A stretch of 64,000 bases of DNA from Dehalococcoidia bacterium. Lineage in GTDB: Bacteria; Chloroflexota; Dehalococcoidia; DSTF01; WHTK01. Position 1 is the first letter of the stretch. The number at the start of each line of letters is the position of its first letter. The position numbers and the translations under genes were made by a program. The notes under the pieces are model-generated. The model made no database searches, had not been told where the DNA came from, and saw only the letters and a program-made list of their open reading frames with translations. The stretch spans positions 221,621 through 285,620 of the forward strand of contig CBDDBP010000007.1 of NCBI GenBank assembly GCA_965225815.1, given 5' to 3'. Of the stretch, positions 7,708 to 56,812 are shown piece after piece.

Positions 7708-8679
7708 TCAGGCGAGTTCGAATCGCGGTGGCTCGATCCACTCGCCGGTTGGGGGATTCTCCTGGAGGAAGACGGCGCGGCGACGGTCCTGCTCGCGGTA
7801 TTCATCGGCCTGGCTCAGAACGGCCTCGCGAGTGGCGTGCTCGGCGGCTTCCTGCGCCGTTTCGGCGTCTGTGGGCTTGTGCGGCTTACCGGCGTGGAGC
7901 TGAAGGCGCCCCTCCTTGTCCAGCTTTGTGAGGTGACTCTGGACGTTGCGGTCGGCCGTGCGCCTGAGGCGGGAGTCGATGTCGGTGTAGATACGCTCCA
8001 TGATTTGCCAGCTGGTCAGCGGCTCGTCTTTAGAGAGTTCGGTGAGGATCTGTGACTCGCGTGTCTCGCGGTGCGAGATGTACTCGTTGATCAGGGCGGC
8101 TGGATTTTCGATCAGCGGGCCGTGGCCGGGGCAGATAAGGCGGAGGTTCGGCAGGGCCCTGAGGCGTCGCAGGCTCTGCATGTAGTCGGCTAGATCGTTG
8201 ACCGCGGTTGTGCTGCCGCCAAGGATCGTATCCCCGGTAAACAGCACGCCTTCCTCCTCGAGGTAGAAGCAGAGCGAGTCTGGGCTGTGTCCAGGCGTGT
8301 GCATGACCTGGAGACGGACGCCGCCGCCGGGACTGAGCGTGCCGCCTTCGAAGAGCGGGAGGACGTGGTCGGGCAGCTTGCCTTCGAGGCGGGATGCAGT
8401 CTCGGGCGAGACGTGGGCCTCGGCGTTGAACTCCTCGCAGACCCAGCGCAGGTTCGAGGAGTGGTCGAAGTGGAAGTGAGACAGCGCGCTGAGGCCAATC
8501 TCCGCCTTTTCGGTCGCGGCGAGATAACCGCGCAGCATCCAGCGGTAGCGGTCTTCATCGGCGCCGGTGTCTATGGCTAAGACCTGGTCTCGGCCGACGA
8601 GGTAAATCGTGGTGAACTGCGGGTGCATCGGGTCCGTCTCTGGGACCTGAACGGCACGGACGCTGGGGCTGACCTGCAT
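7708..8679 (-). CDS. MBL-fold metallo-hydrolase
   Basis: HFHFDHSSN (HxHxDH) and HTPGHSPDS motifs, followed by a C-terminal ~90 aa extension. Confidence 0.65.
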   Translation of the reverse strand: MQVSPSVRAVQVPETDPMHPQFTTIYLVGRDQVLAIDTGADEDRYRWMLRGYLAATEKAEIGLSALSHFHFDHSSNLRWVCEEFNAEAHVSPETASRLEGKLPDHVLPLFEGGTLSPGGGVRLQVMHTPGHSPDSLCFYLEEEGVLFTGDTILGGSTTAVNDLADYMQSLRRLRALPNLRLICPGHGPLIENPAALINEYISHRETRESQILTELSKDEPLTSWQIMERIYTDIDSRLRRTADRNVQSHLTKLDKEGRLQLHAGKPHKPTDAETAQEAAEHATREAVLSQADEYREQDRRRAVFLQENPPTGEWIEPPRFELA

Positions 8680-23781: not shown

Positions 23782-25626
23782 CTACTCGACGGTGACGACT
23801 TTGGCGAGGTTGCGCGGCTGGTCGACATCGCAGCCTTTGAGCCGAGCCAGGTGATACGCGAAAAGCTGCAAAGGGATGGCCGTCACCAGCGGCTGTAGCA
23901 GCGGTGGCGCGTTGGGAACGTAAACAACGTCGCGAACGCGGTCGCGAATCGATTCATTGCCTTCCGTGGCGATGGCAATGACGATGCCGTCGCGGGCTCG
24001 GACTTCCTCGATGTTGTTGAGCATCTTGACGTAGTGCTCATCCCGCACGGCGATGGCGACGACCGGCATCTTGGCGTCGATCAGCGAGATCGGACCGTGT
24101 TTCATCTCGCCGGCGGGGTAGCCTTCGGCGTGAATGTAGGAAACCTCTTTGAGCTTAAGGGCTCCCTCCATTGCGCTGGTGTACTGGATGCCGCGGCCAA
24201 GGAAGAGGACGTTACGGGCGCGTCGATAGCGCCGGGCGAGTTTTTCAACCGCGGGCTCGGTCTTCAGCGCTTCGCCGATGATCTGGGGCGCCCGGGCAAG
24301 GTCGCTGAGGGCGGCGAGGAGATGGTCGCCGCCGAGGAAGCCGCGCTTGTGGCCGATGTAGCAGGCCAGTAGATAGAGCGCGGTCAGCGAGCCGAGATAG
24401 GTCTTGGTGGAAGCGACAGCGACTTCAGGCCCGCATTGCATGTAGACGATGCCATGGGCCAGCCGCGTGGCCTGAGAGCCCGGCGTGTTGCAGACCGTGA
24501 CGACGTGAGCGCCACGGCGCTTCGCTTCGAGCATCGCACCCAGGGTGTCGACGGATTCTCCCGACTGGCCGACGGAGACGACGAGGGTGCGCTTATCGAG
24601 CACGGGGCGGCGGTAGCGGTACTCGGAGGCGTTGTCGGCCTCGGCGGGTAAGCCGGCGAGCTGTTCGACATAGATTCGACCGACCTGGGCGGCGTGGAAG
24701 CTCGTCCCCATCCCGATGAGGACGACCCGGTCGAGGTCTGAGATCTCACGGTCACTGAGATTGAGGTCTGCGAGGTGGACGGCGGGCGGTTCGAGCTGGG
24801 CGGCATCGCGTAGCGTGTCGAGCACGGCCTCTGGCTGCTCCGCGATCTCCTTCGCCATGTAGTGGTCGTAGAGGCCTTTGCCGGCGACGTATGAGCCGAC
24901 GGGCAGCGTCTGTGGCTCTTTTTGAATCGGCTGGCCGTTGAAATCGGAATACCTTGCGCCGCTGCTGGTGACGCAGGCCATCTCGCCGTCCTCGAGAAAG
25001 ACGACGCTCTGGCTTCGATCTGCGATGGCGGGGAGGTCGCTAGCAACGAGCATCTCGTCCTTGCCGTAGCCGATAACGACGCCGCCGGCGTTGGCGACCC
25101 GCGCCGCGACAATGACGCCGGGTTCCTGCTGGTGGATCGTGAGGACGGCCGCTGCACCTTCGATCCGGCTCAGGGCCGCCGCGGTGGCGCCCGCGAGGTC
25201 GAGGCCGTTCTTGATTCCGGATTCGATGAGATGAGGAATGACCTCCGTGTCGGTCTGGGAGCGGAATTCACAGCCCTTCGATTCGAGCTCGAGTCGCAGC
25301 TCGCGGTGGTTTTCGACGATGCCGTTGTGGATGACGGCGATCTCGTTACTGCAATCGAGGTGAGGATGGGCGTTGAGTTGCGAAGCGCGGCCGTGGGTGG
25401 CCCAACGCGTGTGGCCGATCCCCGTGCCCGTGCCTTTGAGTGAGGCAGGGATCTTGTTGCGCAGGTTGACCAGCTTGCCAGCGTCCTTGGCGGTGGCCAG
25501 GGCGCCGTGGCTATCGATCACGGCGATGCCGGCGCTGTCGTAGCCGCGATATTCGAGCTGAGACAGGCCGTCGAGGACAACGGGGACGGCCTCGTCAGGG
25601 CCGACGTAGCCAACGATGCCACACAT
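23782..25626 (-). CDS. glmS: glutamine--fructose-6-phosphate aminotransferase GlmS
   Basis: N-terminal MCGIVGYVG (Ntn Cys), two SIS domains, and the C-terminal ...VTVE. 614 aa. Confidence 0.9.
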   Translation of the reverse strand: MCGIVGYVGPDEAVPVVLDGLSQLEYRGYDSAGIAVIDSHGALATAKDAGKLVNLRNKIPASLKGTGTGIGHTRWATHGRASQLNAHPHLDCSNEIAVIHNGIVENHRELRLELESKGCEFRSQTDTEVIPHLIESGIKNGLDLAGATAAALSRIEGAAAVLTIHQQEPGVIVAARVANAGGVVIGYGKDEMLVASDLPAIADRSQSVVFLEDGEMACVTSSGARYSDFNGQPIQKEPQTLPVGSYVAGKGLYDHYMAKEIAEQPEAVLDTLRDAAQLEPPAVHLADLNLSDREISDLDRVVLIGMGTSFHAAQVGRIYVEQLAGLPAEADNASEYRYRRPVLDKRTLVVSVGQSGESVDTLGAMLEAKRRGAHVVTVCNTPGSQATRLAHGIVYMQCGPEVAVASTKTYLGSLTALYLLACYIGHKRGFLGGDHLLAALSDLARAPQIIGEALKTEPAVEKLARRYRRARNVLFLGRGIQYTSAMEGALKLKEVSYIHAEGYPAGEMKHGPISLIDAKMPVVAIAVRDEHYVKMLNNIEEVRARDGIVIAIATEGNESIRDRVRDVVYVPNAPPLLQPLVTAIPLQLFAYHLARLKGCDVDQPRNLAKVVTVE

Positions 25627-34220: not shown

Positions 34221-34250
34221 TTGTCCTGACGCCAGCGCCGCACCTATACT
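34221..34250 (+). promoter_or_regulatory. candidate sigma-70-type promoter (TTGTCC - 18 nt - TATACT) for the riboswitch-btuFCD transcript
   Basis: Hexamers read directly from the sequence. Spacing is 18 nt. Predicted TSS is about 34257. Confidence 0.3.
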
Positions 34251-34257
34251 GCCGTCA

Positions 34258-34478: not shown

Positions 34479-34534
34479 CACCGGCGCGGGAACTTCCAGA
34501 GTCGATGGGTCGCCTCGAGTGGAAGGAGACTGCC

Positions 34535-37711: not shown

Positions 37712-37770
37712 TTTTGCTTCTCCTGTGTGATTTCTCTGCCGTATTTTACGACGAGCAAGCGTATCGCGAT

Positions 37771-38145: not shown

Positions 38146-38194
38146 GGACTCATTGTAACGCGAGTCGGGTTAGAGGCAGCGCTAGAATTGAGGC

Positions 38195-40917: not shown

Positions 40918-41102
40918 AGAACCAGTGTAGCCCTTGCAAAGCAGCGCCTTCAGCCAACCCAAAGCACATTTGATACGCTATATCCTCACCACGCATATAA
41001 CGCCCTGACGATCAACGTCACGAAACACTCCTGACATGATGCGGTCAGTACGTGTGTTCTATACTGGCAATCTGCGTGAAGTCAGCGCCGAAGGACAAGG
41101 CA

Positions 41103-42083
41103 TTGCAAGCGATCGAAGTCGAACAACTCCGGAAGGAATACGAAGGCGGGATTATCGCCGTAGCTGGCATCGACCTGGAGGTTGAGGCGGGGCAAGTGTT
41201 CGCGTTCCTTGGCCCGAACGGCGCTGGGAAGACGACGACGGTGCGGATGCTCACGACACTGCTACGGCCGACCTCAGGCCGGGCGATGGTGGCGGGCCTC
41301 GACGTCTACCGGCAACAGCACGAGATTCGCCGGTCGATTGGGGTTGCGTTGCAGGAAGCCGGCCTGGATGGCCTGGCGACCGGCCGTGAGTTGCTGGAGC
41401 TGCAAGGCAAACTGTGCGGACTGACCTCGAACGATTCGCGACGGCGCGCCGCGGAGATGCTGGAGCTGGTCGGGCTTGTGGACGCCGCGGAGCGCCAGGT
41501 CAAGACGTATTCGGGAGGCATGAAGCGACGCCTCGACCTCGCCAGCGCGTTGGTCCACGAACCTCGCATCTTGTTCCTGGATGAACCGACCGAAGGCCTT
41601 GACCCGGCCAGCCGGCAGTCCGTGTGGCAGGAAGTGCAGCGCTTAAACAAGCAGATGGGAATGACCGTCTTTTTGACGACGCATTACCTGGAGGAGGCGG
41701 ACCGCCTCGCGGACCAGCTGGCGATCATCGACCACGGCAGCATCGTGGCGCGGGGAACGCCAACCGAGCTGAAGGCCTCGATTGGCGCCGACGTCGTCAC
41801 GGTGACGTTCCACGACTCGGGCGCGGAGGTCGCGAAGCCACTGCTGGCCGAGATGCCAGGCCTGCGCGAGATGCGGCCGGAGGTGAACAGCGTGACGCTG
41901 TTCGTCGACAACGGGACGCAGGCCGTGGCGCAGGTGATCCGGATCCTGGACGGGGCGTCGGTTGAGGTGGCGCAGGTGGCCGTGGCGCATCCGAGCCTGG
42001 ACGAGGTGTTCTTGAAGGCAACCGGCTCGAGGCTCGAGGGCGCCGCGTCGGCCAAGGAGGCGAATGACGATGGCACTGGCTGA
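41103..42083 (+). CDS. ABC transporter ATP-binding protein (DrrA-like, ABC-2 exporter ATPase)
   Basis: Walker A GPNGAGKTTT, signature YSGGMKRRLDLASAL, Walker B LFLDEPTEGLD. Start is ambiguous (TTG 41103 after the AAGGA SD; GTG 41076; track 41052). Confidence 0.7.
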   Translation: MQAIEVEQLRKEYEGGIIAVAGIDLEVEAGQVFAFLGPNGAGKTTTVRMLTTLLRPTSGRAMVAGLDVYRQQHEIRRSIGVALQEAGLDGLATGRELLELQGKLCGLTSNDSRRRAAEMLELVGLVDAAERQVKTYSGGMKRRLDLASALVHEPRILFLDEPTEGLDPASRQSVWQEVQRLNKQMGMTVFLTTHYLEEADRLADQLAIIDHGSIVARGTPTELKASIGADVVTVTFHDSGAEVAKPLLAEMPGLREMRPEVNSVTLFVDNGTQAVAQVIRILDGASVEVAQVAVAHPSLDEVFLKATGSRLEGAASAKEANDDGTG

Positions 42084-42882
42084 GACGACGATGACGGGCG
42101 AGGCGACTCTGCCGGCGTGGAACTCCGTACGTCAAACGCTGCGGGCGACGATGCTGCTGGGCGGCCGCGAAATTCGGTTGGCGCTGCGCACGCCGATGTA
42201 TCTGCTGCCGAACCTGATCGTCCCGATCTTTTTCTACTTCATCATGTTGGGTTCGCTGGAGGACTTTGCGAATTCGGCCGGACTGGCGAACTGGGAGGGC
42301 TTCCTGCTGCCGATGTCGCTGATCTTCGCGGTTCAAGGCGGCAGCGCGGGGCTGAACATGGTGGCCGACATCGAGAGCGGCTACTTCGACAAGCTGTTGC
42401 TGACGCCGGCCAACCGGATGTCGCTGTTAATCGGCGCGATGATGGCCGACTTCTTCCGAGTCATGGCTCAGGCGGTGATCGTCTTGTTGGTCGCCGTGGC
42501 GGCAGGGCTGCACTTTGAGACCGGTGTTCTCGGCGCCATCGTGATGGTGATCCTGGCGAGCTTCTTCGGTCTCGCGTACTCGGGAATTGGCTTCACCATG
42601 GCGCTGCGGACCGGTAACGCGCAGGCAACCCAGAGCATGTGGTTCCTGTTCATGCCGTTCATGTTCCTGACGACGATGTTCGCTCCGAAAGAAGCACTCT
42701 CCGGCTGGTTGAGCACAGCGGCAACGGTTAACCCGATGACTTAAGTACTCCAGGGCCTGCGGTCGCTCTCTCTGGAGGGCTGGAACGCCGGTGACCTGGC
42801 GGTATCTGTCTTGACGATCGCGGTGTGGGCGACTCTCAGCATCAGCGCCGCATTCCTTGCACTCAGGGGTCGGGTGCGTTAA
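42064..42882 (+). pseudogene. ABC-2 type transporter permease interrupted by an in-frame TAA (42742-42744) at the conserved Tyr of the NP(L/M)TY motif
   Basis: The translation reads ...AATVNPMT*VLQGLRSLSLEGWNAGDLAVSVLTIAVWATLSISAAFLALRGRVR*. The downstream 46 codons stay in the same frame and encode the expected last TM helix. This could also be a sequencing error. Confidence 0.55.
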
Positions 42883-42894
42883 ACAGAAAAGCGC

Positions 42895-43407
42895 ATGGCT
42901 AACAGCACCAACACGAGCGATGGCGCGGTCCAAGAGGTCGCGGACGGGTACGAATTGCGCTTCGAGCGCGTCTACGACTCCGCGATCGAGGACGTCTGGG
43001 AGCTACTAACCGACTCGGATGGGGTTGAGAAGTGGCTCGGCGTCGCCGACGTGGAGCTTCGAGTCGGCGGGCGTTATCGATTGCTCGAGGTCGGCGGACA
43101 GGGCATCGCCGGGGTGATTTTGACGCTGGAGACGCCGAATCTGCTCGAATACACGTGGAATTCGGCCCAGTGGACCGGTGGCACGGTGCGCTTTGAGTTG
43201 ATCGAGACGGACGACGGGACGCGGCTCGTGTTTACACACATTCATCCGGCGAAGAGTTGGGAGCTATTCCGCTACAAGTCGCTGGCGGGTTGGCACACGC
43301 TGCTCGATCTGCTCGAACTGGCGGTCCAGGGCCGACCGGAGTCGTGGCATATGGGGCGCTGGCAGACGCATTACGATCGCTACCTTTCGGCGGGTGGGCT
43401 GGACTAG
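42895..43407 (+). CDS. SRPBCC-superfamily protein (AHSA1/activator-of-Hsp90-ATPase-like)
   Basis: ...VYDSAIEDVWELLTDSDGVEKWLG... matches the AHSA1/polyketide-cyclase-like family. Confidence 0.55.
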   Translation: MANSTNTSDGAVQEVADGYELRFERVYDSAIEDVWELLTDSDGVEKWLGVADVELRVGGRYRLLEVGGQGIAGVILTLETPNLLEYTWNSAQWTGGTVRFELIETDDGTRLVFTHIHPAKSWELFRYKSLAGWHTLLDLLELAVQGRPESWHMGRWQTHYDRYLSAGGLD

Positions 43408-43461
43408 TTCGTCTCGGTTGACACACCTAAGCCGAATCTGTAATGTTTTCCGCTGGCACCC

Positions 43462-43475
43462 CCTGTGACCACAGG
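43462..43475. promoter_or_regulatory. perfect dyad CCTGTG-AC-CACAGG about 180 nt upstream of rpsL; candidate operator/promoter element of the str operon
   Basis: Read directly. A second GTGACCAC lies 20 nt downstream. Confidence 0.25.
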
Positions 43476-43651
43476 TGTTAGGTCGTTTGACCTGAATGTG
43501 ACCACGGTCGATCGCTCTCCCGCCTTAAGTGGAGACTCCGCCGAGGAGAGGTCGACTAGCTCAGTAATAGGGCAACCGGCCTATGCGCTTGCCTACGGGC
43601 AGACGATGGGTGTGGTCAAAGGGAGCTTGAAAGAAGAAAGGGAGCACGGGC

Positions 43652-44065
43652 TTGCCAACGATTAATCAGCTGGTGTCCAAGGGCCGTAAAGTCCCGACTC
43701 GCAAGACCAAGGCGCCCGCTCTGCGCTGGCGCTACAACGCGCTGCACAACACAACGCAGTGGACAAAGGGTTCGCCGCAGAAGCGTGGTGTTTGCGTGCA
43801 GGTGCGCACGATGACTCCCAAGAAGCCGAATTCGGCTTTGCGCAAAATCGCGCGAGTCCGCCTGACCAACGGCATGGAAGTCACGGCCTACATTCCCGGC
43901 GAAGGCCACAGCCTGCAGGAGCACTCCGTGGTGCTGATCCGTGGCGGTCGCGTCAAGGATCTTCCCGGCGTTCGCTATCACATCATCCGCGGTGCGCTCG
44001 ACGCGTCGGGTGTGGCTAGTCGTCGCCGCGGTCGCAGCAAGTACGGCGCCAGGAAGGACACGTAG
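43652..44065 (+). CDS. rpsL: 30S ribosomal protein S12
   Basis: [12 protein letters not shown]...KKPNSALRK...; TTG start, 8 nt after AAGGGAG. Confidence 0.9.
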
Positions 44066-44067
44066 TC

Positions 44068-44538
44068 ATGGCACGACGTGGCAAGGCGGCACGACGCGAG
44101 ATCCCGGCGGACGGCAAATACAGCTCCAAAATGCTCCAGATGTTTATCAACAAGGTCATGCTGGACGGCAAAAAGAGCACCGCTGAGCGCATTGTTTACC
44201 AGGCGCTTGGGACGATGGAGGAGCAGAGCGGACGTCCGGCGATCGACGTGTTCGACCAGGCGCTTCGCAACGCGACCCCGGCTGTCGAAGTGAAACCTCG
44301 CCGCGTCGGTGGCGCCACATACCAGGTACCGGTCGACATTCGAGCCGAGCGCCGTGTCTCCCTGGCAATGCGCTGGCTGGTCCGATCGGCGCGAGCCCGC
44401 CGTGGCCGTTCGATGGCCGAAAAGCTGGCGGGTGAACTAATGGACGCATCATCCGGTCAGGGCGCTACCGTAAAGCGCCGCGAAGATACACATCGTATGG
44501 CGGAAGCGAACCGCGCTTTCGTGCACTACCGCTGGTAA
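44068..44538 (+). CDS. rpsG: 30S ribosomal protein S7
   Basis: Canonical S7 sequence. 156 aa. Confidence 0.9.
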   Translation: MARRGKAARREIPADGKYSSKMLQMFINKVMLDGKKSTAERIVYQALGTMEEQSGRPAIDVFDQALRNATPAVEVKPRRVGGATYQVPVDIRAERRVSLAMRWLVRSARARRGRSMAEKLAGELMDASSGQGATVKRREDTHRMAEANRAFVHYRW

Positions 44539-44544
44539 TTAGCT

Positions 44545-46626
44545 ATGCCCCGTCCTTCCAACATCGAGAACGTTCGCAACATCGGCATCATCGCGCACAT
44601 TGACGCCGGTAAGACCACCGTGACCGAGCGCGTGCTTTATTACACGGGCCGAACCTACAAGATCGGCGAAGTCCACGAGGGCACCGCCGTGATGGACTGG
44701 ATGGCCCAGGAACGCGAACGCGGCATCACGATCACGGCTGCCGCGACGACCGCGGAATGGAAGGGCCACCAAATCAACATCATCGACACGCCCGGCCACG
44801 TCGACTTCACAGTCGAGGTGGAGCGCAGCTTGCGCGTACTGGACGGCGGCGTCGTGGTGTTCGATGCGGTTGCAGGCGTGGAGCCACAGTCGGAAACGGT
44901 GTGGCGTCAGGCCGACCGATACAACGTGCCGCGTATCTGCTTCGTCAACAAAATGGACCGCACGGGCGCCGATTTCTGGCGCACCGTCGACATGATCGCC
45001 GAACGCCTGGACGCACGGCCGGTGCCAATCCAGATCCCATGGGGAGTGGAAGCCGACTTTACCGGCATGATCGACCTGGTCGAGCAGAAAGCGCTTTACT
45101 TCACCGGCGAGCGGGACGATCCGCCAGAGGTGCGCGACATACCGCCCGAGATGCAGGAAGCTTACGAGCGCGCTCGTGACCGCCTGCTCGAAAAAGTGGG
45201 CGAGTGTGACGAACAGCTGATGATCTCGTACATCGAAGGCCACGAGGTGACGGCGCCGGAATTGAAGAAAGCGCTGCGGCGTGCGACGTTGGAAGGTCAG
45301 ATCACACCTGTCCTCTGCGGGACGGCGCTACGCAACAAAGGCACGCGCTTGCTGCTCGACGCGGTCATCGACTACCTGCCCTCACCGATCGACGTGCCGC
45401 CCGTTTTAGGCACGGACCCAAAGACCGGCGAGCCTGAGAAGCGCACGACCGACGCGGACGAGCCGCTGAGCGCCCTGGTGTTCAAGATCGTCACGGACCA
45501 GTACATCGGTCGTCTGGCCTACCTGCGGCTCTATTCTGGCAGGGCAACCAGCGGTATGCAGGTGCTGAACACGAGCCGCGACCACACGGAGCGCTTTGGC
45601 CGCCTGGTGCGGATGCACGCGAACAAGCAAGAAGAAGTCACCGAGGTCTTCGCCGGCGACATCGTCGCGGCGGTGGGCCTGAAGAACACGCTGACCGGCG
45701 ATACGCTGTCCGACCCTTCGAAGCCGATGCTGCTGGAGCCGATCAAGTTCCCGGAGCCGGTGATCTCAATCGCCATCGAGCCGAAGTCAAAGAGCGATGA
45801 GGACAAGATGGGCGAGGCTTTGACGAAGCTGGCAGATGAGGACCCGACGTTCCGGATTCACTACGAGGAAGAAACGGGACAGACGCTGATTTCCGGCATG
45901 GGCGAGCTCCACCTCGAAGTGCTGGTCGACCGCATGCTGCGCGAGTTCAGCGTTAACGCGAACGTAGGTCGCCCGCAGGTGGCTTACCGCGAGGCGCTGA
46001 CGCGAGGCACCGTCGCCGAGGGCCGCCACGTGCGGCAGACAGGTGGTCACGGCCAGTACGGTGTCGTGAAGCTGGACGTCGAGCCGGGAGAACGTGGGTC
46101 AGGCTTCATATTCGTGAACAAGGTCGTCGGCGGTTCGGTACCGCGTGAGTTTGTCGGGCCGACAGAAGATGGCGTGAAATCCGCGATGGAAAGCGGTCCG
46201 GTGGGCGGCTATCCGGTTGTCGACGTCAAAGTAACGCTGATCGACGGCTCGACTCACCCGGTCGACTCATCGGAGATGGCGTTCCGCATGGCCGGCATCG
46301 AAGGTATGCGCAAGGCAATGAACCAGGCCGATCCGGTGCTGCTGGAGCCGGTCATGAAGGGCGAAGTCCGTGTCCCGGAGCAATTTTTCGGAGATGTCCT
46401 GGGTGACATCAACGCTCGTCGCGGACACGTCATTGATGTCGAGTCGTTCGGGACGTTGCAGATCATTCGCTGCCAGATTCCTCTGGCGGAGACGTTCGGC
46501 TACACTACGGAACTGCGCTCGATGACGCAGGGGCGGGCGACTCACACCATAGAATTCGATCAGTACGAGGTCGTACCGGCGCACATCGCTGAGAAGCTTG
46601 GTGCGCGTACCAAGGTACACCGCTAG
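44545..46626 (+). CDS. fusA: elongation factor G
   Basis: [13 protein letters not shown]1 motif, DTPGHVDF, and the full five-domain EF-G. 693 aa. Confidence 0.95.
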
Positions 46627-46669
46627 ATAGCCGCCCGAAAGGTGCGGAAGAGAAAGTAACCGAGCAAGC

Positions 46670-46978
46670 ATGCCACGACAGAAGATCAGGATCAGGCTCA
46701 AGGCTTTCGACCACCGCATACTCGATCAGTCTGCAGAGCAGATTGTGGAAGCGGCAGAGCGTACCGGAGTTACGGTTGCCGGGCCGGTGCCGCTGCCAAC
46801 CGAGATACAGAAGTTCACCGTGAACAAGTCCCCGTTTGTGGACAAGGACTCGCGTGAGCAGTTCGAGATCAGGACGCACAAGCGCCTGATCGACATTTTG
46901 GAACCGTCTTCCCGAACCGTAGACACGCTGATGCGCCTGCAGTTGCCGGCCGGCGTGGACATCGAGATCAAGCTGTAA
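46670..46978 (+). CDS. rpsJ: 30S ribosomal protein S10
   Basis: Canonical S10. 102 aa. It directly follows fusA, with no tuf between them. Confidence 0.95.
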
Positions 46979-46980
46979 CG

Positions 46981-47853
46981 ATGGCGAACGCGATTTTTGG
47001 CCGTAAAGTTGGAATGACGCAGGTGTTCTCCGCCGGTGGCGAGGCACGTGGCGTCACTGTGGTTGAGGCTGGCCCTTGCACGGTGGTGCAGATCAAGACG
47101 CAGGAGCGCGACGGTTACGACGCGATCCAGCTGGGCTACGGCGAGCGCAAGCGAGTCACCGCCCCGATGAAAGGCCACATGAAGCAGTTGGGGCAGTTCC
47201 GCTACCTGCGGGAGGTACGCGTGGACGACCCGAATGAGTACACCGTGGGCCAAACCCTGGGCGTGTCGTTGTTCGAAGAGGGCGAAATCGTTGACGTCGT
47301 GGGAAAGTCGAAGGGCAAAGGCTTTGCCGGCGTCGTGAAGCGATACCATTTCCACGGCGGTCCGAAGACGCATGGCCAGTCCGACCGCCACCGCGCACCG
47401 GGCTCGATTGGCGCCGGCACTTCGCCGGGCCGGGTTCGCAAGGGCTTGCACATGGGGGGCCACATGGGCGACGACCGCGTCACGGTGAAGAACCTGCGTG
47501 TCTTCGATACAGACGAAGCGCGCAATGTACTGCTTATCGAAGGTGCTGTTCCCGGCGCGAAGAACGGCCTGCTGCGAATCCGCAAGACAGGCAGGCTCAG
47601 CAACCAGCCCAAGCTGGAGCGCCCCGCGCTACCGGTTGTCGAGGACGAAGAAGTGCCGGCCGCGGCAGAAGAGGCGGCTGAAGACACCGAAGCGCCCGTG
47701 GTCGCGGCTGAGGAAGCTCCAGTGGCGGAGGCTGAAGAGGCTCCCGAAGCCACGAGTGAGGCAGCGCCAGAGACAGAAGCAGCGACTGAAGCGGTGGCCG
47801 AAGAGGAACCCGCCGCCGAGGCCGCGGAAGAGTCAGAAGAGAAGCCGGAATGA
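46981..47853 (+). CDS. rplC: 50S ribosomal protein L3 with ~80-aa Ala/Glu/Pro-rich C-terminal extension
   Basis: Canonical L3 core, followed by ...[33 protein letters not shown]...EESEEKPE. Confidence 0.9.
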
Positions 47854-48524
47854 AACTGACGGTGTACGACATCAGCGGCAAAGAAGTCGACAGCTTGGAA
47901 GCGGACGACCTCGTCTTCGGACTGACGCCGCATCACGCCTCGATGCGTCAGGCGCTTCTGGCGCAGCTGGCCAACCGTCGCGCCGGCAGCGCGAATACGA
48001 AGACTCGAGGCGAGGTGCGCGGTTCGACTCGCAAGATCCGGCGTCAGAAGGGCATCGGCGCCTCGCGCCAGGGAGCGATTCGGGCGCCGCACCACCGCCA
48101 CGGTGGTATCTCCTTCGGGCCGAAGCCGCGCTCATTCAAGCAGGCGTTGCCGAAGCGTGTGCGCCGGCTGGCGATCCGTTCGGCGATCTCGTCAAAGGCA
48201 CAAGACGGAGAGCTCAAGGTCGTACGCGGTCTGGGCCTGGACTCGCCGAAGACGCGCGCCGTGAAAGACATGCTCGCAAGCCTGGAGATAACGCGCTCCG
48301 TGTTGCTGGTCACGGCGACTTCCGATCGGAACATCTTGCTCAGCGCCAGGAACTTGCCGAAGACGCGGGCGCTGGCGGCGGACTACCTCAACGTTGGGGA
48401 CCTGATGACCGCACGATCCCTGGTGATGACGGAAGACGCAGTACGCCGTGCCGAAGCGCTATGGGGCGGCGAACGCGCCAGCAAGCGCATCGCAGCGGTG
48501 CCGGAGGCGGCGACACATGGATAA
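47850..48524 (+). CDS. rplD: 50S ribosomal protein L4
   Basis: Canonical L4. ATG overlaps the L3 stop. Confidence 0.9.
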   Translation: MKLTVYDISGKEVDSLEADDLVFGLTPHHASMRQALLAQLANRRAGSANTKTRGEVRGSTRKIRRQKGIGASRQGAIRAPHHRHGGISFGPKPRSFKQALPKRVRRLAIRSAISSKAQDGELKVVRGLGLDSPKTRAVKDMLASLEITRSVLLVTATSDRNILLSARNLPKTRALAADYLNVGDLMTARSLVMTEDAVRRAEALWGGERASKRIAAVPEAATHG

Positions 48525-48822
48525 ATCAATAAACCCGTATGTCGTGATTCGACGGCCGCTGGTGACTGAGAAGAGCACCGCGCTGGCGGGCGCGAACAAG
48601 TACGTCTTCGAAGTGGACTATCGCGCCAACAAGCCACAGATCAAAGAAGCTGTCGAGAAGGCATTCGACGTCACGGTGACCGCCGTCAACGTGCTGATTA
48701 TGAAGGGCAAGACCCGCGGCGGCCGTCGATTCGGGCGCCGCACGACTACGGCGTCGGACTGGAAGAAAGCGATCGTTACGCTGTCAGCGGACGACCACAT
48801 AGAACTGTTCGAGGGAGTGTAA
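48517..48822 (+). CDS. rplW: 50S ribosomal protein L23
   Basis: [20 protein letters not shown]...; internal ATG at 48517 overlaps the L4 stop. The track ORF starts upstream at 48448. Confidence 0.85.
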
Positions 48823-48823
48823 G

Positions 48824-49651
48824 GTGCCGGTAAAACAGTACAAACCAACCTCCCCCGGAGTGCGCGGGGCCAGCGGCTACACCTTCAGCGAAATCACGAC
48901 GAAGAAGCCGGAGAAGTCGCTGACCGTCTCCAAGAAGCGGATGGCGGGACGTAACAACCAGGGCAAGATCACCGTGAGGCATCGCGGTGGCGGCGCTCGG
49001 CGCAAGCTACGAATCATTGATTTCAAGCGCAACAAGACTGGCGTGCCCGGAAAGGTCGCTTCGATTGAGTACGACCCCAACCGAACGGCTCGCATCGCGC
49101 TGATTCATTACCGCGATGGCGAAAAGCGCTACATCCTGGCGCCGACCGGATTGCAAGTCGGTGCGATGGTACAGGCAGGCCCGACAGCAGAGATTCGTAT
49201 TGGCAACGCGTTGCCTTTGCGCAGCATGCCGTCAGGCACCGTGGTTCACAACATCGAGCTGATCGTCGGCCGCGGCGGCCAGATCGTGCGCAGCGCCGGC
49301 GGTTCAGCGCAGCTCATGGCGAAAGAGGACAAGTACGCCCTGCTTCGTCTTCCGTCAGGGGAGATGAGGCGGGTCCCGGCCGATTGCATGGCGACGGTTG
49401 GGCAGGTTAGCAACCCGGAACACCAGCTGATAAAGCTGGGCAAAGCGGGCCGCATCCGTCACAAGGGTCGCCGGCCGCAGGTTCGCGGCTCCGCGATGAA
49501 CCCCGTCGACCACCCGCACGGCGGTGGTGAGGGCAAGTCGCCGATCGGCCACCCGGGGCCCAAGACGCCATGGGGCAAGCCGACTTTGGGTTACCGGACA
49601 CGAGGCAAGAAGCAGAGCGACCGGCTAATTGTCCGGCGACGCTACAAGTAG
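48824..49651 (+). CDS. rplB: 50S ribosomal protein L2
   Basis: Canonical L2 (...HPHGGGEGK...). GTG start. Confidence 0.95.
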
Positions 49652-49663
49652 GAGATATAGCGA

Positions 49664-49954
49664 GTGTCGCGATCTACCAAGAAGGGCCCGTTCATCGATG
49701 CGAAGCTACTCAAGAAGGTTGAGGCGCTGCAACGTACCGGTGCGCGCACGGTAATTCGGACCTGGTCGCGGGCATCGACGATTATGCCGGAGATGGTTGG
49801 CGTGACGATCGCAGTACATGATGGACGCCGACACGTACCGGTATTCATCACGGAAAACATGGTGGGTCACCGCCTGGGCGAATTCGCCATGACTCGAACG
49901 TTCCGCGGCCACGCGGGCCGTTCCGAGCGGACTACGCAGGTTCGGAGGAATTAG
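49664..49954 (+). CDS. rpsS: 30S ribosomal protein S19
   Basis: [11 protein letters not shown].... GTG start. Confidence 0.9.
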
Positions 49955-50289
49955 TGGAAGTCCAAGCGACCGCCTCCAATCTGCGAATTTCGCCGCGCAA
50001 GGTGCGCTTGCTCCTGGAGCCAATCAAGGGTCGCCGGGTGGACGAGGCCGTCGCGATTTTGCGCAACGCGCCGATGCCAGTGGCACGAAAGGTAGAGAAG
50101 ATCGTGCGTTCGGCAGCAGCGAACGCGGAGAACAACTACCAGCTCTCACCGGACGATCTGCGCGTGAAGGCCGCCTGGGCCAATGAGGGCACGCGATTGA
50201 AGCGCTTTCGGGCCGGCGCTCGAGGGCGCCCCAAGCCGTGGGTGCGACGCTTCGCGCACGTGACGATAGTCGTAGAAGACAGGGCATAA
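49954..50289 (+). CDS. rplV: 50S ribosomal protein L22
   Basis: Canonical L22. GTG overlaps the S19 stop. Confidence 0.9.
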   Translation: MEVQATASNLRISPRKVRLLLEPIKGRRVDEAVAILRNAPMPVARKVEKIVRSAAANAENNYQLSPDDLRVKAAWANEGTRLKRFRAGARGRPKPWVRRFAHVTIVVEDRA

Positions 50290-50292
50290 AGT

Positions 50293-51379
50293 ATGGGTCA
50301 CAAGACGCATCCGATCGGCTTCCGCCTGGGAATCCTGTATCCGTGGCAGAGCAAGTGGTACGCCGACAAAAACTACACAGAGCTGCTGCACGAGGACCTG
50401 GGCCTGCGCAAGATGATCCTGGCGCGCCTGTCCGATGCGGCGGTATCTCGGGTTGAGCTGGAACGCAACGCGAACCAGGTCATCGTCACGATTCATACGG
50501 CAAAGCCCGGCATCGTCATCGGCCGAGGTGGTCAGAAGGTCGATGAGCTTCGCGGCGACCTCGAGAAGAAGACGGGCCGCAGGATCCGGGTGAATATCGT
50601 CGAGATCCGCCAGCCGGAACTCGACGCCTACCTGGTAGCGCGCAGCGTCGCAGACCAGCTGGAACGCCGGGTGGCTTTCCGCCGGGCAATGAAGCAGGCG
50701 GTGACTCGGACGATGCAGCGTGGCGCGCGCGGCGTGAAAATAACGGTCGGCGGACGCCTTGGTGGTTCTGAGATGTCGCGTCGCGAGACGGAAAAAGACG
50801 GCCGTGTGCCGCTGCATACGCTGCGAGCAGATGTTGACTTTGGCCAGGCCGAAGCGGCGACGACATTCGGCCGAATCGGCGTGAAGGCGTGGATCTACCG
50901 CGGCGACATCATGCCTGAGCCGAGTGCGGCACGCCCCGGCGAAGAAGAGACAAGCCTGCCTCCGACGCCGGTCACCCCTGTTGCGCGGCGGCGGCACCGG
51001 TTGCCCCCGCCGCACCTGTGGCCGAGGCGGCACCGGTTGCCCCCGCCGCACCTGTGGCCGAGGCGGCACCGGTTGCCCCCGCCGCACCTGTGGCCGAGGC
51101 GGCACCGGTTGCCCCCGCCGCACCTGTGGCCGAGGCGGCACCGGTTGCCCCCGCCGCACCTGTGGCCGAGGCGGCACCGGTTGCCCCCGCCGCACCTGTG
51201 GCCAGGCGGCACCGGTTGCCCCTGCAGCACCTGTAGCTGAGGCGGCTCCAGCCGCACCCGCCGCACCTGTAGCCGAGGCACCGAGCCCGCCGGCAGCAGA
51301 AGCGCCGCTCGCAGCACCAGAGACTACGGCGGCCGAGCCAGCGGCGTCGGAAGAAACGCCAGGAAGCGGGGAGGCCTAG
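50293..51379 (+). CDS. rpsC: 30S ribosomal protein S3 with Ala/Pro/Val/Glu-rich tandem-repeat C-terminal tail; the tail frame is interrupted twice in this sequence
   Basis: The canonical S3 KH/C-terminal domains run in frame 1 to about 50985. The plausible tail ([12 protein letters not shown] repeats ... GEA*) lies in frame 0 across the repeats and frame 2 after a 1-nt deletion in copy 6. It ends 3 nt before rplP. The uninterrupted frame 1 would encode [12 protein letters not shown] x6 and then a TAG at 51238. Confidence 0.75.
50992..51278 (+). repeat. 36-nt tandem repeat (cggcaccggttgcccccgccgcacctgtggccgagg): 5 identical copies, a sixth with a 1-nt deletion, then 2 diverged copies, inside rpsC
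   Basis: Read directly. Substitutions in copies 7 and 8 are synonymous only in the Ala/Pro frame. Confidence 0.8.
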
Positions 51380-51382
51380 CCG

Positions 51383-51808
51383 ATGCTGCAGCCAAAACGC
51401 GTCAAGTATCGCAAGCACCATCGCGGGCACCGCCGAGGCATGGCGAACTCCGGCAACGTGCTGTCGTTCGGCGACATCGGGTTGCAATCGACGAGTGCCG
51501 CGTGGGTCGACAGTCGGCAGATTGAGGCGGCACGCCGTGCGATTACGCACCACCTGCGCCGCGGTGGAAAAGTCTGGATTCGGATCTTCCCGGACAAGCC
51601 CGTGACGAAGAAGCCGGCCGAAGTCCGCATGGGTTCCGGTAAGGGACCTGTCGATCGCTGGGTGGCCGTGGTGCGGCCGGGCCGCATGTTGTTCGAAATC
51701 GCCGGTGTGCGCGAAGACGTGGCGAAGGAAGCACTGCGCCTGGCGTCGCACAAACTGCCGTGTTCGACACGGGTGCAGGAGAAGATCCTCGAGGGTGTGT
51801 CCTCATGA
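51383..51808 (+). CDS. rplP: 50S ribosomal protein L16
   Basis: Canonical L16. 141 aa. Confidence 0.9.
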
Positions 51809-52029
51809 CACGGAAGAATGACGCCTTCGATGAGCTGACCGCGATGGACGCGACGCGCCTCAGCAAGGAGCTGGACGACACGTACCGTCAGCTCTTTACG
51901 CTGCGGCTGCAGGTGGCAACCCGTCAGCTTCAGGATGTGAAGGAAATTGGCAAGGTGAGGAAGAAGATCGCACGCATCAAGACGCTACAACGTCAACGCG
52001 AGCTTGCGACTTTAGGAGTTAGCGAGTGA
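51805..52029 (+). CDS. rpmC: 50S ribosomal protein L29
   Basis: [23 protein letters not shown]...; ATG overlaps the L16 stop (ATGA). The track ORF starts upstream at 51760. Confidence 0.85.
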
Positions 52030-52634
52030 GCGAGAGTACGCGAGGGCGTCGCAAGAGCCTGATAGGAACTGTTGTCAGCGTCAAGATGGAAAAGACGGCT
52101 GTCGTGTCGGTAGAGCGCCGTTATCCGCATCAGCTCTATCACAAGATCATCCGATCGACGAAGCGCTACAAGGCGCACGATCCGCTCAACGCAGCGGTCC
52201 TGGGTGACACGGTCCGCATCGTGGAGACGCGTCCGATTTCGAAAGAGAAGCGATGGCGCATCTCCGAGACGATGACGCGCGGCAACGTGGCCGACATCGC
52301 GCCGCGTGAGATCGGCGTGCCCGAAGAAGGTCTGTATCATCCGGAGCGCCCAGACCCGGCGCCGGCGGCTGTAGCAGAAGCCGCGGTTGAGGCGGAGACC
52401 CCGGAGGCGGCAACCGAAGCGGCGTCTGCGGAAGAAACGTCACCAGCGGCTGAAGCACAGGCTGCAGTTGAGGCGGAGACCCCGGAGGTGACAACCGAGG
52501 TGGCGTCCGTTGCGGATGAGGCTCCGGTCGCTGAGCCGGAAGCGGCTCCGGCCGCTGAGCCGGAGGCGACACCAGCCGCTGAGGTCGGAGAGACGACTGG
52601 GGAAGAGCCGGCAGAGGGCGGCGAAAAGGAATGA
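52026..52634 (+). CDS. rpsQ: 30S ribosomal protein S17 with ~110-aa Ala/Glu/Pro-rich C-terminal extension
   Basis: Canonical S17 OB-fold core, then ...[22 protein letters not shown]...[12 protein letters not shown] overlaps the L29 stop. Confidence 0.85.
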
Positions 52635-52999
52635 TCCAGAAATTCAGCCGTCTCAAGGTTGCGGACAACTCGGGCGCGCGCGAAATCATGTGCATCCAGG
52701 TGCTCGGCGGGACGCGCCGTCGCTACGCCAGCGTGGGCGACACGATCGTGGCGTCCGTCAAGCTGGCGCAGCCGAATGCCGCGGTGAAAAAGGGCGAAGT
52801 TGTGAGAGCGGTGGTTGTCAGGACGGCGAAAGGCTATGGCCGGCCGGATGGCTCTTACATTCAGTTCGACGAAAATGCCGCCGTGGTGCTGTCCGACACA
52901 CAGAACCCGCGAGGCACCCGCATTTTCGGGCCCGTGGCTCGCGAGCTGCGAGAGCGCAACTACATGAAAATCGTCTCGCTGGCGCCGGAGGTCATCTAA
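52631..52999 (+). CDS. rplN: 50S ribosomal protein L14
   Basis: [17 protein letters not shown].... 122 aa. Confidence 0.9.
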
Positions 53000-53322
53000 T
53001 GAGTGGCATTCGGCGCAATGACAACGTCCAGGTCAATACAGGTAAGGACCGCGGCAAGCAAGGCCAGGTTCGGGAAGTGATCAAGAAGAGTAACCGAGTG
53101 GTGGTTGACGGCATCAACATGATGAAGAAGCATCAGCGTCCGTCACAGCAGGCCGGCGTCCCTGTGCCCGGTTCGGTAGTGACCCGCGAGGCGCCGCTAC
53201 ACATGTCGAATGTCATGGTGGTGTGTTCGGAGTGCAATCAGGCGACGCGTACGGGACGCCGACTGCGACCGGATGGCGTCAAGGTGCGGGTTTGTAAGCG
53301 GTGTGGAGCCGACATTGACTAA
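52999..53322 (+). CDS. rplX: 50S ribosomal protein L24 (KOW) with C-terminal Cys4 zinc-ribbon-like motif
   Basis: [24 protein letters not shown]... KOW core, then VVCSECNQ...VCKRCG. ATG overlaps the L14 stop. The track ORF begins far upstream at 52510. Confidence 0.85.
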
Positions 53323-53881
53323 CAGCGTCGCAACCCGAGTCCAAGACCTCTATAAGGAGCAGGTGTACCCGACGCTTCAGCGTGAGTTCAATTACACCAA
53401 CGTCATGGAAGTACCGAAGCTCACGAAGATCATGCTGAACATCGGCCTGGGTGAGGCGCGTGAGAACGCGAAAGCGCTCGATACCGCTTCAGCAGACCTG
53501 TCAACGATCACGGGGCAGAAGCCGGTGATCACGCGATCGAAGAAGTCGATCGCCAACTTCCGATTGCGCGAAGGCATGCCAATCGGCGTCGTGGTTACTC
53601 TGCGCGGCAGGCGCATGTATGAGTTCTTCGATCGACTGGTGAACGCCGCTTTGCCACGTATCCGTGACTTTCGGGGCTGCTCATCGAAGGCCTTCGACGG
53701 CCGGGGCAACTACAGCCTTGGCGTCAGGGAGCAGCTGATCTTTCCGGAGATCGATTACGACCAGATCGACCGCATCCGCGGTATGCAGATCAACATCGGC
53801 ACTTCGGCTCGCAACGATGAAGAAGGCAAACGCTTACTCGAGCTGCTTGGTATGCCATTCGACAAGCCCGAGGGGAGATAG
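53303..53881 (+). CDS. rplE: 50S ribosomal protein L5
   Basis: ...[37 protein letters not shown].... GTG 53303 or TTG 53315. The track ORF starts at 53210. Confidence 0.85.
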
Positions 53882-53883
53882 CC

Positions 53884-54069
53884 GTGGCCAAGATATCGAT
53901 GATCGTCAAAGGCAACCGGACGCCGAAGTATCCGGTCCAAAAGCGCAGCCGCTGCAGGTTGTGCGGCAGGCCGCGTGGTTATATGCGCAAGTTCGCGCTG
54001 TGTCGCATCTGCTTCCGCAAGCTGGCGCTTGAGGGTCAGATTCCCGGCGTGACGAAGTCGAGCTGGTAG
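53884..54069 (+). CDS. rpsZ: 30S ribosomal protein S14 type Z (zinc-binding)
   Basis: 61 aa with CRLCGRP...CRICFR Cys4. Confidence 0.85.
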
Positions 54070-54081
54070 GGGGCAATTCGC

Positions 54082-54480
54082 GTGACGATGACTGATCCCA
54101 TCGCTGACATGCTGACGCGCATCCGAAACGGAGTTTCGGCGAAGCATGACAACGTACAAATGCCGACTTCCAAGATCAAAGTGGCCATTGCCAAGGTGCT
54201 CAAGGAGGAGGGCTTCATCCGAGATTTCCAGGTCTCGGAAGAGGTGCCGCGTTCGATGTTGAAGATCGACCTGAGCTACACGGGCCGCAAGGACCCGGTG
54301 CTTTCTGGCATCAAGCGGGTCAGCAAGCCAGGCCTGCGTGTTTACGTCCAGAAGCGCGAAATACCGCGCGTGCTGGGCGGCCTGGGTGTGGCGATTCTTT
54401 CGACTCCAGAAGGGGTCATGACCGGCCAGCATGCCCGTCAAAAGGCAATCGGTGGCGAGATTCTTTGCTATGTGTGGTAA
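54082..54480 (+). CDS. rpsH: 30S ribosomal protein S8
   Basis: [15 protein letters not shown].... GTG 54082 or ATG 54088. Confidence 0.9.
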
Positions 54481-54483
54481 ACG

Positions 54484-55023
54484 ATGTCACGAATAGGTAG
54501 GGCGCCGATCCCAGTACCGTCCTCGGTGAAAGTCGAGATCGAGGGTCGCCATATTAGCGTCACGGGCCCAAAGGGCACGCTGGAGCGCGAAGTGGTGCCA
54601 GAAGTCAGGTTGCACCAGGAAGACGGTCAGTTGCTGGTGACGCGACCGAACGACCAGCCACGAGAGCGGGCCATGCACGGCCTGACGCGCGCCCTGCTGT
54701 CAAACATGGTCGTTGGTGTTTCGGACGGGTTTAGCAAGACGCTGGAACTGGTTGGCGTCGGCTATCGGGCGCAGATGCAGGGTTCCGATCTGGTCCTGGC
54801 GCTGGGCTTTTCACATCCTGTAAAGGTTGCAGCGCCGGAGGGCATTTCTTTTGTAGTCGAGGGTCCTCGCGTGACGGTCTCGGGTATCGACCGTCAGGTC
54901 GTCGGGCAAGTCGCCGCGGATATTCGCAAACTGCGCCCGCCGGAGCCATATCTCGGCAAGGGTGTTCGATATCAGGGTGAATACGTCCGCCGCAAGGCGG
55001 GTAAGTCAGGCAAGGGCCGGTAG
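54484..55023 (+). CDS. rplF: 50S ribosomal protein L6
   Basis: Canonical L6. 179 aa. Confidence 0.9.
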
Positions 55024-55025
55024 GA

Positions 55026-55394
55026 ATGAAGAAGAGCGCAACAAATCGCGCCGCCCGGATCAGGCGTCATGTACGCGTCCGGCGTCGTGTCGAAGGCACC
55101 GGCGAGAAGCCGCGACTCTGCGTATTTCGCAGCCTGTCGCACATCTACGCTCAGGTTATCGATGACGTCGCCCGGGTGACGATTGTCTCGGCATCAGACG
55201 TGGAGAAAGACGTCGCCACCAATGCGGGCGACAAGAAGAAGTCGGACGTGGCGACGCTGGTCGGGACCCTGGTCGCAGAGCGCGCCAAAGAAAAGGGAGT
55301 GACGAAGGTGGTCTTCGACCGCGGGGGCTATCCCTTCCATGGCCGGATCAAGGCGTTGGCGGAAGCGGCGCGGGCCGGCGGACTGAACTTCTAA
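55026..55394 (+). CDS. rplR: 50S ribosomal protein L18
   Basis: Canonical L18. 122 aa. Confidence 0.9.
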
Positions 55395-55407
55395 AGAGGA
55401 ATCACGA

Positions 55408-55920
55408 ATGGTACTGGCTTCAGAACGAATCGATACGTCCGGCCTCGATCTTCAAGAGAAGGTCGTGTTCATCAACCGCGTGGCGAAGGTGGTGAAGGGC
55501 GGACGTCGCTTTAGCTTCACAGCCGTTGTGGTTGTGGGCGATCACCTGGGACACGTGGGAGCCGGGATGGGCAAGGCGAATGAAGTGCCGGATGCGATCC
55601 GCAAAGGCGCCTTCATCGCTCGCAAGAACCTGATCAAAGTACCGCTGACAGACACAGCGACTCTGCCCCACACAGTGACTACCAAGTTCAAAGCGGCGCA
55701 GGTGCTGATGAAGCCCGCGGCTCCCGGAACCGGCTTGATCGCCGGTGGTGGGGTGCGTTCCGTCCTCGAAATGGCGGGCGTCAAAGACGTGTTGGCGAAG
55801 TCGCTGGGCAGCTCCAACGTGATGAACGTGGTCCAAGCAACGATTAACGGCCTGATGGAGCTGCGGGACCCGAAGCAGCAGCGCGAACGGCGCCTGGCCG
55901 CGTCTGGCGCCAGAGGTTAG
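55408..55920 (+). CDS. rpsE: 30S ribosomal protein S5
   Basis: Canonical S5 (...[18 protein letters not shown]...). 170 aa. Confidence 0.9.
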
Positions 55921-56111
55921 TGATGGCCCGACTCAAGATAACGCTGACGAAGAGTCCAATCAGCCAAAAGAAGAACCAACAGTTGACGGTGAGATCGCTT
56001 GGCCTGCGGCGCGTGCGGCAGAGTGTTACGGTGGAAGACACACGTAGCAACCGAGGCATGATTCTCACAGTCCGCCACCTGGTTGAAGTGGAAGAAGAGG
56101 GGGAGGCGTAG
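55920..56111 (+). CDS. rpmD: 50S ribosomal protein L30
   Basis: ARLKITLTKSPI.... 63 aa. Confidence 0.8.
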   Translation: MMARLKITLTKSPISQKKNQQLTVRSLGLRRVRQSVTVEDTRSNRGMILTVRHLVEVEEEGEA

Positions 56112-56812
56112 TGCGGCCGAACGATCTCACCCCGGTCCCCGGGTCCATCCACAAGAAGAAGCGAATCGGCCGAGGCAACTCCAGCGGTCATGGCACCTAC
56201 GCGACGCGTGGCCTAAAGGGTCAGAAATCACGTTCCGGCCGTGACCTGCGTATTGGCTTCGAGGGTGGCCAGAACCCACTGGTACGTTCGCTTTCGCGCA
56301 AGCGTGGCTTTAAGAACCGCTTCCGAATCGATTACGAGGCCGTCAATGTAGGCGATCTGGCAATACTCCCAGCGGGCGACGTCACAAGCGAGAGCCTGAG
56401 GACGGCCGGCATCGTCAAGTCGGCCCGAAAGCCAGTCAAGATCCTCGGCGACGGCGAAATCAGCGTGGCCTTGAACATCGAGGTCGAAAAGATATCTGCC
56501 AGCGCGAAGACGAAGATTGAGAACGCGGGCGGCACGGCGACCATGCTGGTGCCGCCGAAAGAGAAGAAGCTACGTTACGCGGGCGACAGCCAAGGCGCGC
56601 GCGACGACGATGAGGACACCGAGGCGCCGGCCGCGAGCCAGCCGATTGCTGAAGTTCCGGCCGCGGATGCGTCTGCTGAGGCACCCGCCACCGAAGCAGA
56701 GGCAGAGGCGAAGCCGGCGAGACGCGCACGCGCACCGCGTAAGGCCACACCTGCCCCCGAAACTGAGAGTGAAAGTAGTGAAGAAGGCGGCGAGGGCGGT
56801 TCGGAGGCTTAA
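56111..56812 (+). CDS. rplO: 50S ribosomal protein L15 with ~90-aa acidic Ala/Glu/Pro-rich C-terminal extension
   Basis: MRPNDLTPVPGS...KKRIGRGNSSGHGTY... core, then ...DDDEDTEAPAASQPIAEVPAADASAEAPATEAEAEAKP...SEEGGEGGSEA. GTG start. Confidence 0.85.
   Translation: MRPNDLTPVPGSIHKKKRIGRGNSSGHGTYATRGLKGQKSRSGRDLRIGFEGGQNPLVRSLSRKRGFKNRFRIDYEAVNVGDLAILPAGDVTSESLRTAGIVKSARKPVKILGDGEISVALNIEVEKISASAKTKIENAGGTATMLVPPKEKKLRYAGDSQGARDDDEDTEAPAASQPIAEVPAADASAEAPATEAEAEAKPARRARAPRKATPAPETESESSEEGGEGGSEA

Follow-up and report, generated by a model that had tools for sequence, protein, structure and literature searches.

In the cryo-EM structure of the Cutibacterium acnes ribosome, long lineage-specific extensions of ribosomal proteins other than uS3 are without density and are probably disordered, and uS3, uS4 and uS5 are placed around the mRNA entrance (PMC10085706). 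The rpsC gene analyzed here resembles genes for uS3 proteins with lineage-specific C-terminal extensions in that it encodes a conserved KH_2/S3_C core, stands in the standard S10 position, and adds a solvent-side tail of variable length. It departs from the usual uS3 extensions in that its tail is nearly pure Ala/Pro/Val/Glu with a perfect 12-codon minisatellite, and in that the number of repeat copies differs between strains that are ~99.8% identical in the flanks. The inter-domain linkers of the E2 chains of 2-oxo acid dehydrogenases are likewise Ala/Pro-rich and flexible. By analogy with these linkers, the S3 tail, with its Ala, Pro, Val and Glu composition and its short periodicity, may be expected to form an extended, flexible and acidic spacer, but E2 linkers run between folded domains, whereas the S3 tail lies at the protein terminus.

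At the DNA level, the S3 copies are arranged head-to-tail, are identical, and vary in number between strains, as in coding VNTRs that change by slipped-strand mispairing. Unlike in an on/off phase-variation switch, the unit is a multiple of 3 nt, and changes in copy number alter the length of the tail and keep its frame. Coding minisatellites in low-complexity extensions of ribosomal proteins are a feature of known kind, and the repeat is another example. For the broken reading frame, the closest described case is that of collapsed mosaic consensus assemblies, which give sequence artefacts and whose apparent frameshifts are corrected by allele-specific assembly (PMC8445201). As with such collapsed-allele frameshifts, the S3 breaks are confined to places of length difference between alleles or reads, and they are gone in independent assemblies. 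The published case concerns a diploid eukaryote, whereas the mixture here, if present, would be one of VNTR alleles in a metagenomic population, a mechanism that we infer.

The rpsC gene and its repeat tail

We analyzed rpsC in a window of 64 kb, that is, the whole stretch of DNA under study. The S3 ORF as given in this window occupies 50293..51240 in frame 1 and encodes 315 aa; this product is a called protein in public databases (P0121), encoded on a contig of 748,589 nt. The conserved core of uS3 and the proximal, nonrepeat part of its tail (50293..50984, + strand) are intact in frame 1. TIGR01009 (rpsC_bact) matched the core with 279.1 bits against a cutoff of 114.5, with residues 1-207 corresponding to model positions 1-209 of 212, and Pfam placed KH_2 (PF07650; 66 bits) at residues 39-110 and then Ribosomal_S3_C (PF00189; 110 bits) at residues 119-201. 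The S10 operon order rplV-rpsC-rplP is kept in the window and is the same in the related loci L001 and L002. Directly upstream of rpsC lies rplV (L22; 49954..50289), and downstream lies rplP (uL16; 51383..51808, + strand) with its ATG at 51383; Pfam Ribosomal_L16 is recorded for the identical L16 protein in L001. By its match to TIGR01009, the order of KH_2 and Ribosomal_S3_C, and its position in the operon, the protein is the bacterial 30S protein uS3. Two minus-strand ORFs that lie over the array (50146..51195 and 50972..51751) were rejected as by-products of the GC-rich sequence; the plus strand carries S3 and L16.

Tandem Repeats Finder reported an array at 50990-51279 in the S3 tail (period 36, 8.1 copies, 94% matches, score 503), which is by far the strongest tandem array in the window. 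A perfect period-36 run of 214 nt spans 50990-51203. Over 50991..51205 (+ strand), the array holds six copies of the unit GCGGCACCGGTTGCCCCCGCCGCACCTGTGGCCGAG (12 residues), of which five are complete and identical and the sixth lacks one G; comparison of the units identified two diverged copies, 7 and 8, at 51206..51277 (+ strand). The first-pass annotation, which was made from the DNA letters, had described the 36-nt repeats in the same way, as five identical units and a sixth with a 1-nt deletion, and both the repeat search and the perfect run agree with it. With near-identical copies placed head-to-tail and a unit of whole codons, the array is a coding VNTR, and because the unit length is a multiple of three, natural alleles keep the frame.

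Read in frame 1, the array gives a 12-residue repeat six times and then 11 residues up to the stop codon at 51238..51240 (+ strand), which ends the 315-aa ORF. The Ala/Pro-rich 12-residue reading is found in frame 0 (51018..51236), and after the missing G (51203/51204) it goes on in frame 2 to ...EETPGSGEA*. The nonrepeat end of this Ala/Pro tail (51278..51379, + strand, frame 2) consists of 33 residues followed by TAG, and it matches the C-terminus of P0003, an S3 protein that is described below. The SGEA* stop at 51377-51379 is separated from the ATG of rplP by 3 nt. Reading the frames through to this stop thus reproduced two further points of the first-pass annotation, namely that the core is in frame 1 with an Ala/Pro tail in frame 0 and then in frame 2, and that the tail ends 3 nt before rplP.

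Relative to the consensus unit, copy 7 carries CCC>CCT, GCC>GCA, GTG>GTA and GCC>GCT, all at third positions and all synonymous in the Ala/Pro frame, and copy 8 carries five third-position changes and one second-position change, the latter resulting in a single Val>Ala; the unit comparison is here in full accord with the earlier description. Of the 10 differences in the two copies together, 9 affect the third base of a codon in the Ala/Pro frame. The repeat and its frames are thus real and do not reflect chance. It could be argued that frame 1 encodes an evolved, functional tail and that the Ala/Pro frame is a coincidence, since the sequence as given has no uninterrupted ORF but that of frame 1. 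We regard this as extremely improbable. Only in the Ala/Pro frame are the changes of copies 7 and 8 synonymous, the relatives all have Ala/Pro/Glu tails, most of them with the xEA end described below, and frame 1 stops inside copy 7, which leaves 139 nt apparently noncoding before rplP, a stretch that recurs unchanged as the coding tail of P0003.

Tail length in close strains and in relatives

P0003 (277 aa), a protein of the same species, is encoded at locus L001, extended as L089, on a contig of 3.49 Mb. Its core is that of the window protein except for one residue, and its C-terminus is identical to the frame-2 tail of the window. Positions 45293-56379 of the window were 99.7-99.9% identical to L001, with 20 substitutions and no indel outside the array, and comparison of 34067-51028 with L001/L089 showed three single-base homopolymer differences (34307, 34450 and 38157), all of them intergenic. 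Over 34067-56379 there were no coding indels between the window and L001/L089, the array excepted, which argues that the window assembly is otherwise clean and that its defects are specific to the repeat. In the S3 tail, the window has a net 253 extra nt compared to L001, which is not a multiple of three.

At flanking identities of 99.2-99.9%, the array comprises 1 unit in L001 and in L087, 3 units in L088 and 8 units in the window, as anticipated by the first-pass annotation, according to which copy number may vary between strains. The array is in frame in all of these alleles except that of the window, and P0003, L087 and L088 run in frame to the common SGEA end. Removal of the segment between two CCTGT(T/A)GCT sites turns the long allele into the short one of L001. 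Copy number thus varies among close strains with the frame kept, which is the behavior of a coding VNTR, and the allele series fits a normal coding minisatellite. Among the S3 matches in the protein collection, no other assembly had the fully expanded array in frame, and neither the left flank nor the repeat unit was found in the JGI metagenomes. The copy number of the S3 array provides a handy strain marker.

A search of the protein collection returned thousands of S3 homologues, and the close ones, at 86-100% identity in the core, belong to uncultured Chloroflexota/Dehalococcoidia-like bacteria. In the contig scan, the closest relative among the matches listed was 89% identical and belonged to Chloroflexia MAGs, which gives a broad taxonomic placement only. 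The tails of the close homologues are all rich in Ala, Pro, Val and Glu and nearly without Lys and Arg, and the end xEA, usually SGEA or GGEA, is present in 84 of the 120 homologues listed. The first-pass annotation had proposed this comparison of rpsC with close relatives, and the composition of the homologous tails, together with the end that P0003 shares with frame 2 of the window, upholds its view that Ala/Pro is the true frame of the tail.

Measured from the WIYRG motif, the tail ranges from 19 to 192 aa among the 120 homologues listed, and so the constraint on it is weak; the only conserved elements are the proximal GEEDTSLPP and the terminal xEA. What lies between the proximal motif and xEA is a variable Ala/Pro/Val/Glu spacer without basic residues, and such a composition is typical of linkers that are extended, flexible and acidic. 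Such a tail could serve as a disordered spacer, bristle or tether that reaches into the solvent from the 30S head. The length of the tail evidently matters little, and the S3 tail is dispensable.

In a sister lineage, the S3 proteins P0001 (396 aa) and P0002 (385 aa) have a common core that is 97% identical to the query core, and their tails are made of different 12-residue periodic units, e.g., PAAETAPVEPAT; positions 3717-3977 of L002 show DNA periods of 36, 39 and 75. Since P0001 and P0002 differ in both units and lengths, turnover of the S3-tail minisatellite is recurrent in the clade. Two other ribosomal proteins, encoded in the same operon as S3 of the window, also have C-terminal Ala/Glu/Pro-rich extensions: L3 (rplC, 290 aa), with a repeat of period 24 at 47689-47744, and S17 (rpsQ, 202 aa), with repeats of periods 81 and 24 at 52357-52583. 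No difference in length from L001 was seen for the L3 and S17 tails. Taken with the repeat tails of P0001 and P0002, the L3 and S17 tails show that acidic repeat tails are a habit of the lineage and not the peculiarity of one gene. On S3, L3 and S17 alike, this Chloroflexota lineage carries Ala/Pro/Glu tails that evolve fast and vary in length.

Independent assemblies and the two frame breaks

Logan contigs from runs ERR14231557 and ERR14231558 were retrieved with the S19 allele of the window, which differs from the S19 of L001, and with the L16 and S4 proteins; in these k=31 contigs, minority variants and copy number are not visible. Two contigs from ERR14231558 showed no difference from the window (L084, 1149 nt compared; L091, 3261 nt compared), and a third from the same run, L086, had 0 mismatches and 1 gap over 3616 nt. 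From ERR14231557, L090 showed a single mismatch and no gap in 8528 nt, and L083 had 1 mismatch and one 13-nt gap over 1538 nt. All 5 alleles by which the window differs from L001 recur in L086.

The sole gap in the L086 alignment is a G that is missing from the window after 51203, and the right edge of the array in this contig, GTGGCCGAGGCGGCACC, is in frame. The left edge is contained in L083 as GTTGC[TGCTGCGCCGGTC]GCGGCGG and reads on in the S3 frame. L083 breaks off after 30 nt of the first unit, which is expected of a k-mer graph contig that reaches a tandem repeat. Both edges are also present in L088 (ERZ23495085), an unrelated scaffold of 855 nt from another sample, in which the whole tail and both junctions are in frame; the 13 nt of L083 are followed there by one perfect unit, a unit resembling copy 7, then copy 8 and the normal end. 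Compared to these assemblies, the window has two lesions. At 50984..50985 (+ strand), the 13 nt TGCTGCGCCGGTC that are present in L083 and L088 are absent, which moves the reading from the S3 frame into the 12-residue repeat of frame 1, and at 51203..51204 (+ strand), one G that is present in L086 and L088 is absent (CCGAGG to CCAGG), so that the Ala/Pro reading passes out of frame 0 into frame 2. Both breaks are beyond residue 230 of S3 and outside all conserved domains, and residues 1-207 of the core are untouched by either lesion.

The first-pass annotation had attributed the broken frame to two indels, either as assembly errors, which it preferred, or as a genuine frameshift. Its preference is supported by L083, L086 and L088, all of which read the junctions in frame. 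Its second indel, of 1 nt at ~51203, was also correct; the first, however, is a gap of 13 nt and not a 1-nt indel, as seen in L083 and L088. A repair by one inserted G per break likewise opens the frame, but it is superseded by the 13-nt left gap in these two assemblies. With the 13 + 1 nt put back, the gene has 1101 nt and an uninterrupted S3 frame of 366 codons, in which six perfect 12-residue units precede copies 7 and 8 and the SGEA end. Beyond Arg-218, the true tail is free of Lys and Arg. Provided that six is the correct copy number, the true S3 product is ~366 aa.

A third difference, at 50949 (+ strand), is a substitution specific to the window, with G in place of the C that is found in L001, L083, L087 and L088. 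It lies 35 nt upstream of the 13-nt gap and gives EEETSLPP instead of EEDTSLPP (Glu for an otherwise invariant Asp), the latter being conserved in P0001, P0002, P0003 and P0004-P0011. This substitution may be either a real SNP or one more consensus error of local origin, which would be the third. In the nonredundant same-strain comparison of ~13.7 kb there were four differences, three of which (50949, 50984/5 and 51203/4) cluster inside 255 nt of the S3 tail, with both indels exactly at the edges of the block of identical copies. Outside the S3 tail, ~13.5 kb of Logan sequence differed from the window by 1 mismatch and 0 indels. This one difference is at 55792, where the window has T and both L001 and L090 have C, and it is a synonymous CTG>TTG change in rpsE.

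The lesions are thus absent from same-strain assemblies, and the differences are concentrated at the repeat. Indels clustered at the edges of the block fit a misplacement of reads and are unlike mutation in a lineage with about one change per 13 kb. We consider it probable (at roughly 0.84) that the locus is a real, recently expanded coding VNTR with a local assembly or consensus artefact. Under this reading, rpsC would be an ordinary, functional gene whose extension is a low-complexity acidic Ala/Pro/Val/Glu tail with a 36-nt, 12-codon unit. The array would expand and contract by slipped-strand mispairing or unequal recombination, and its six identical copies next to two older, diverged ones would reflect a recent expansion in the window strain. 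The 13-nt gap at the 5′ edge and the 1-nt gap at the 3′ edge of the perfect block would be local consensus or assembly errors, which could have arisen from reads that were misplaced, or that differed in copy number, across the perfect 216-nt repeat during consensus building. Judged from the sequence comparisons, an assembly origin is the most likely source of the discrepancy. A point that counts against an artefact is that a 13-nt deletion is untypical of random base-calling error, and another is that the S3 matches include no other assembly with the fully expanded array in frame.

We also weighed a genuine, strain-specific frameshift, in which the 13-nt and 1-nt deletions are real and an intact core carries a tolerated basic tail of Arg/His/Pro/Trp repeats that ends at 51240. 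The intact S3 core and the wide range of tail lengths in the relatives would allow this, and the 315-aa product does stand as a called database protein. In addition, the Logan contigs are set apart from the window by the SNPs at 50949 and 55792 and may come from a population that is near-identical to that of the window rather than identical. Nevertheless, three independent mutations within 255 nt would be needed, compared to one in ~13.5 kb of flank, and none of the independent assemblies has either junction out of frame. Beside the mRNA entry site, such a frameshift would also turn a tail of net charge -17 into one of +16, and no such tail exists in any relative. Nor were the lesions found again in the same-strain data, where L086 has the G, or in the left junction, where L083 and L088 have the 13 nt. 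On this evidence we hold a genuine frameshift to be unlikely. A narrower version of it, in which the lesions are real in a subpopulation and have swapped the acidic tail for the basic one beside the mRNA entry channel, is more doubtful still. If this were true, an essential ribosomal protein would exist here in a natural tail-swap variant, tolerated or even exploited by the cell.

Programmed recoding would explain the same frames differently, with ribosomes that shift by -1 twice, at ~50985 and ~51203, and so produce the Ala/Pro tail. In its favor, the two breaks displace the frame the same way (1 to 0 to 2), and the last frame runs precisely to the conserved SGEA stop. Yet there are zero X XXY YYZ heptamers in any frame between 50900 and 51380, the S3 genes of the same species and of the sister species are all single ORFs in which no shift is needed, and the lesions are absent from the same-strain contigs. 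Moreover, a single-base shift at the 13-nt gap would still omit four residues of the in-frame alleles. The chance that recoding operates here seems to us negligible.

Returning to the expanded VNTR with a local artefact, the public 315-aa S3 (P0121) is very probably a wrong protein model. It is unfit for propagation into databases or for studies of tail evolution, and it should equally be kept out of counts of essential-gene pseudogenes; a frameshifted form of this essential gene most probably does not exist. The locus would illustrate how consensus errors can break the frame of a GC-rich coding minisatellite even when the long contig around it is clean.

A comparable break was seen in another genus, in the S3 protein P0039, encoded on a 3.6-Mb contig (L095). 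There, a 1-nt deletion in the repeat of the S3 tail (GGCTT-GCCGG, ~1440-1460) turns ...AAEMASPASPDS... into a basic nonsense tail, and the ORF enters rplP by 23 nt. The shifted frame still encodes the usual end of the family, ...TDAEPATTGEEV (...GEEV). L095 also differs from L096, which encodes P0036, by in-frame indels of 12, 6 and 3 nt. As a second case, P0039 suggests that such sequence may pose a recurrent technical problem and that the error mode is systematic.

Other features of the window

A glmS ribozyme (Rfam RF00234, 79 bits) is located at 25753-25968 on the minus strand, upstream of a 614-aa ORF at 23782..25626 on the same strand, which is an ordinary arrangement. A cobalamin riboswitch (RF00174, 60.6 bits) at 34247-34388 on the plus strand lies upstream of a Peripla_BP_2/FecCD/ABC_tran transporter operon. 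The homopolymer difference at 34307 (A6 compared to A5 in the L001 contig) is inside this riboswitch. A repeat with a 104-nt unit present in 1.9 copies (91% matches) was found at 7539-7727. It is mostly situated between minus-strand ORFs that end at 7404 and 8679 and overlaps the 3′ end of the ORF at 7708..8679 by ~20 nt, and a related partial copy of its 3′ part is found at ~7500-7530.
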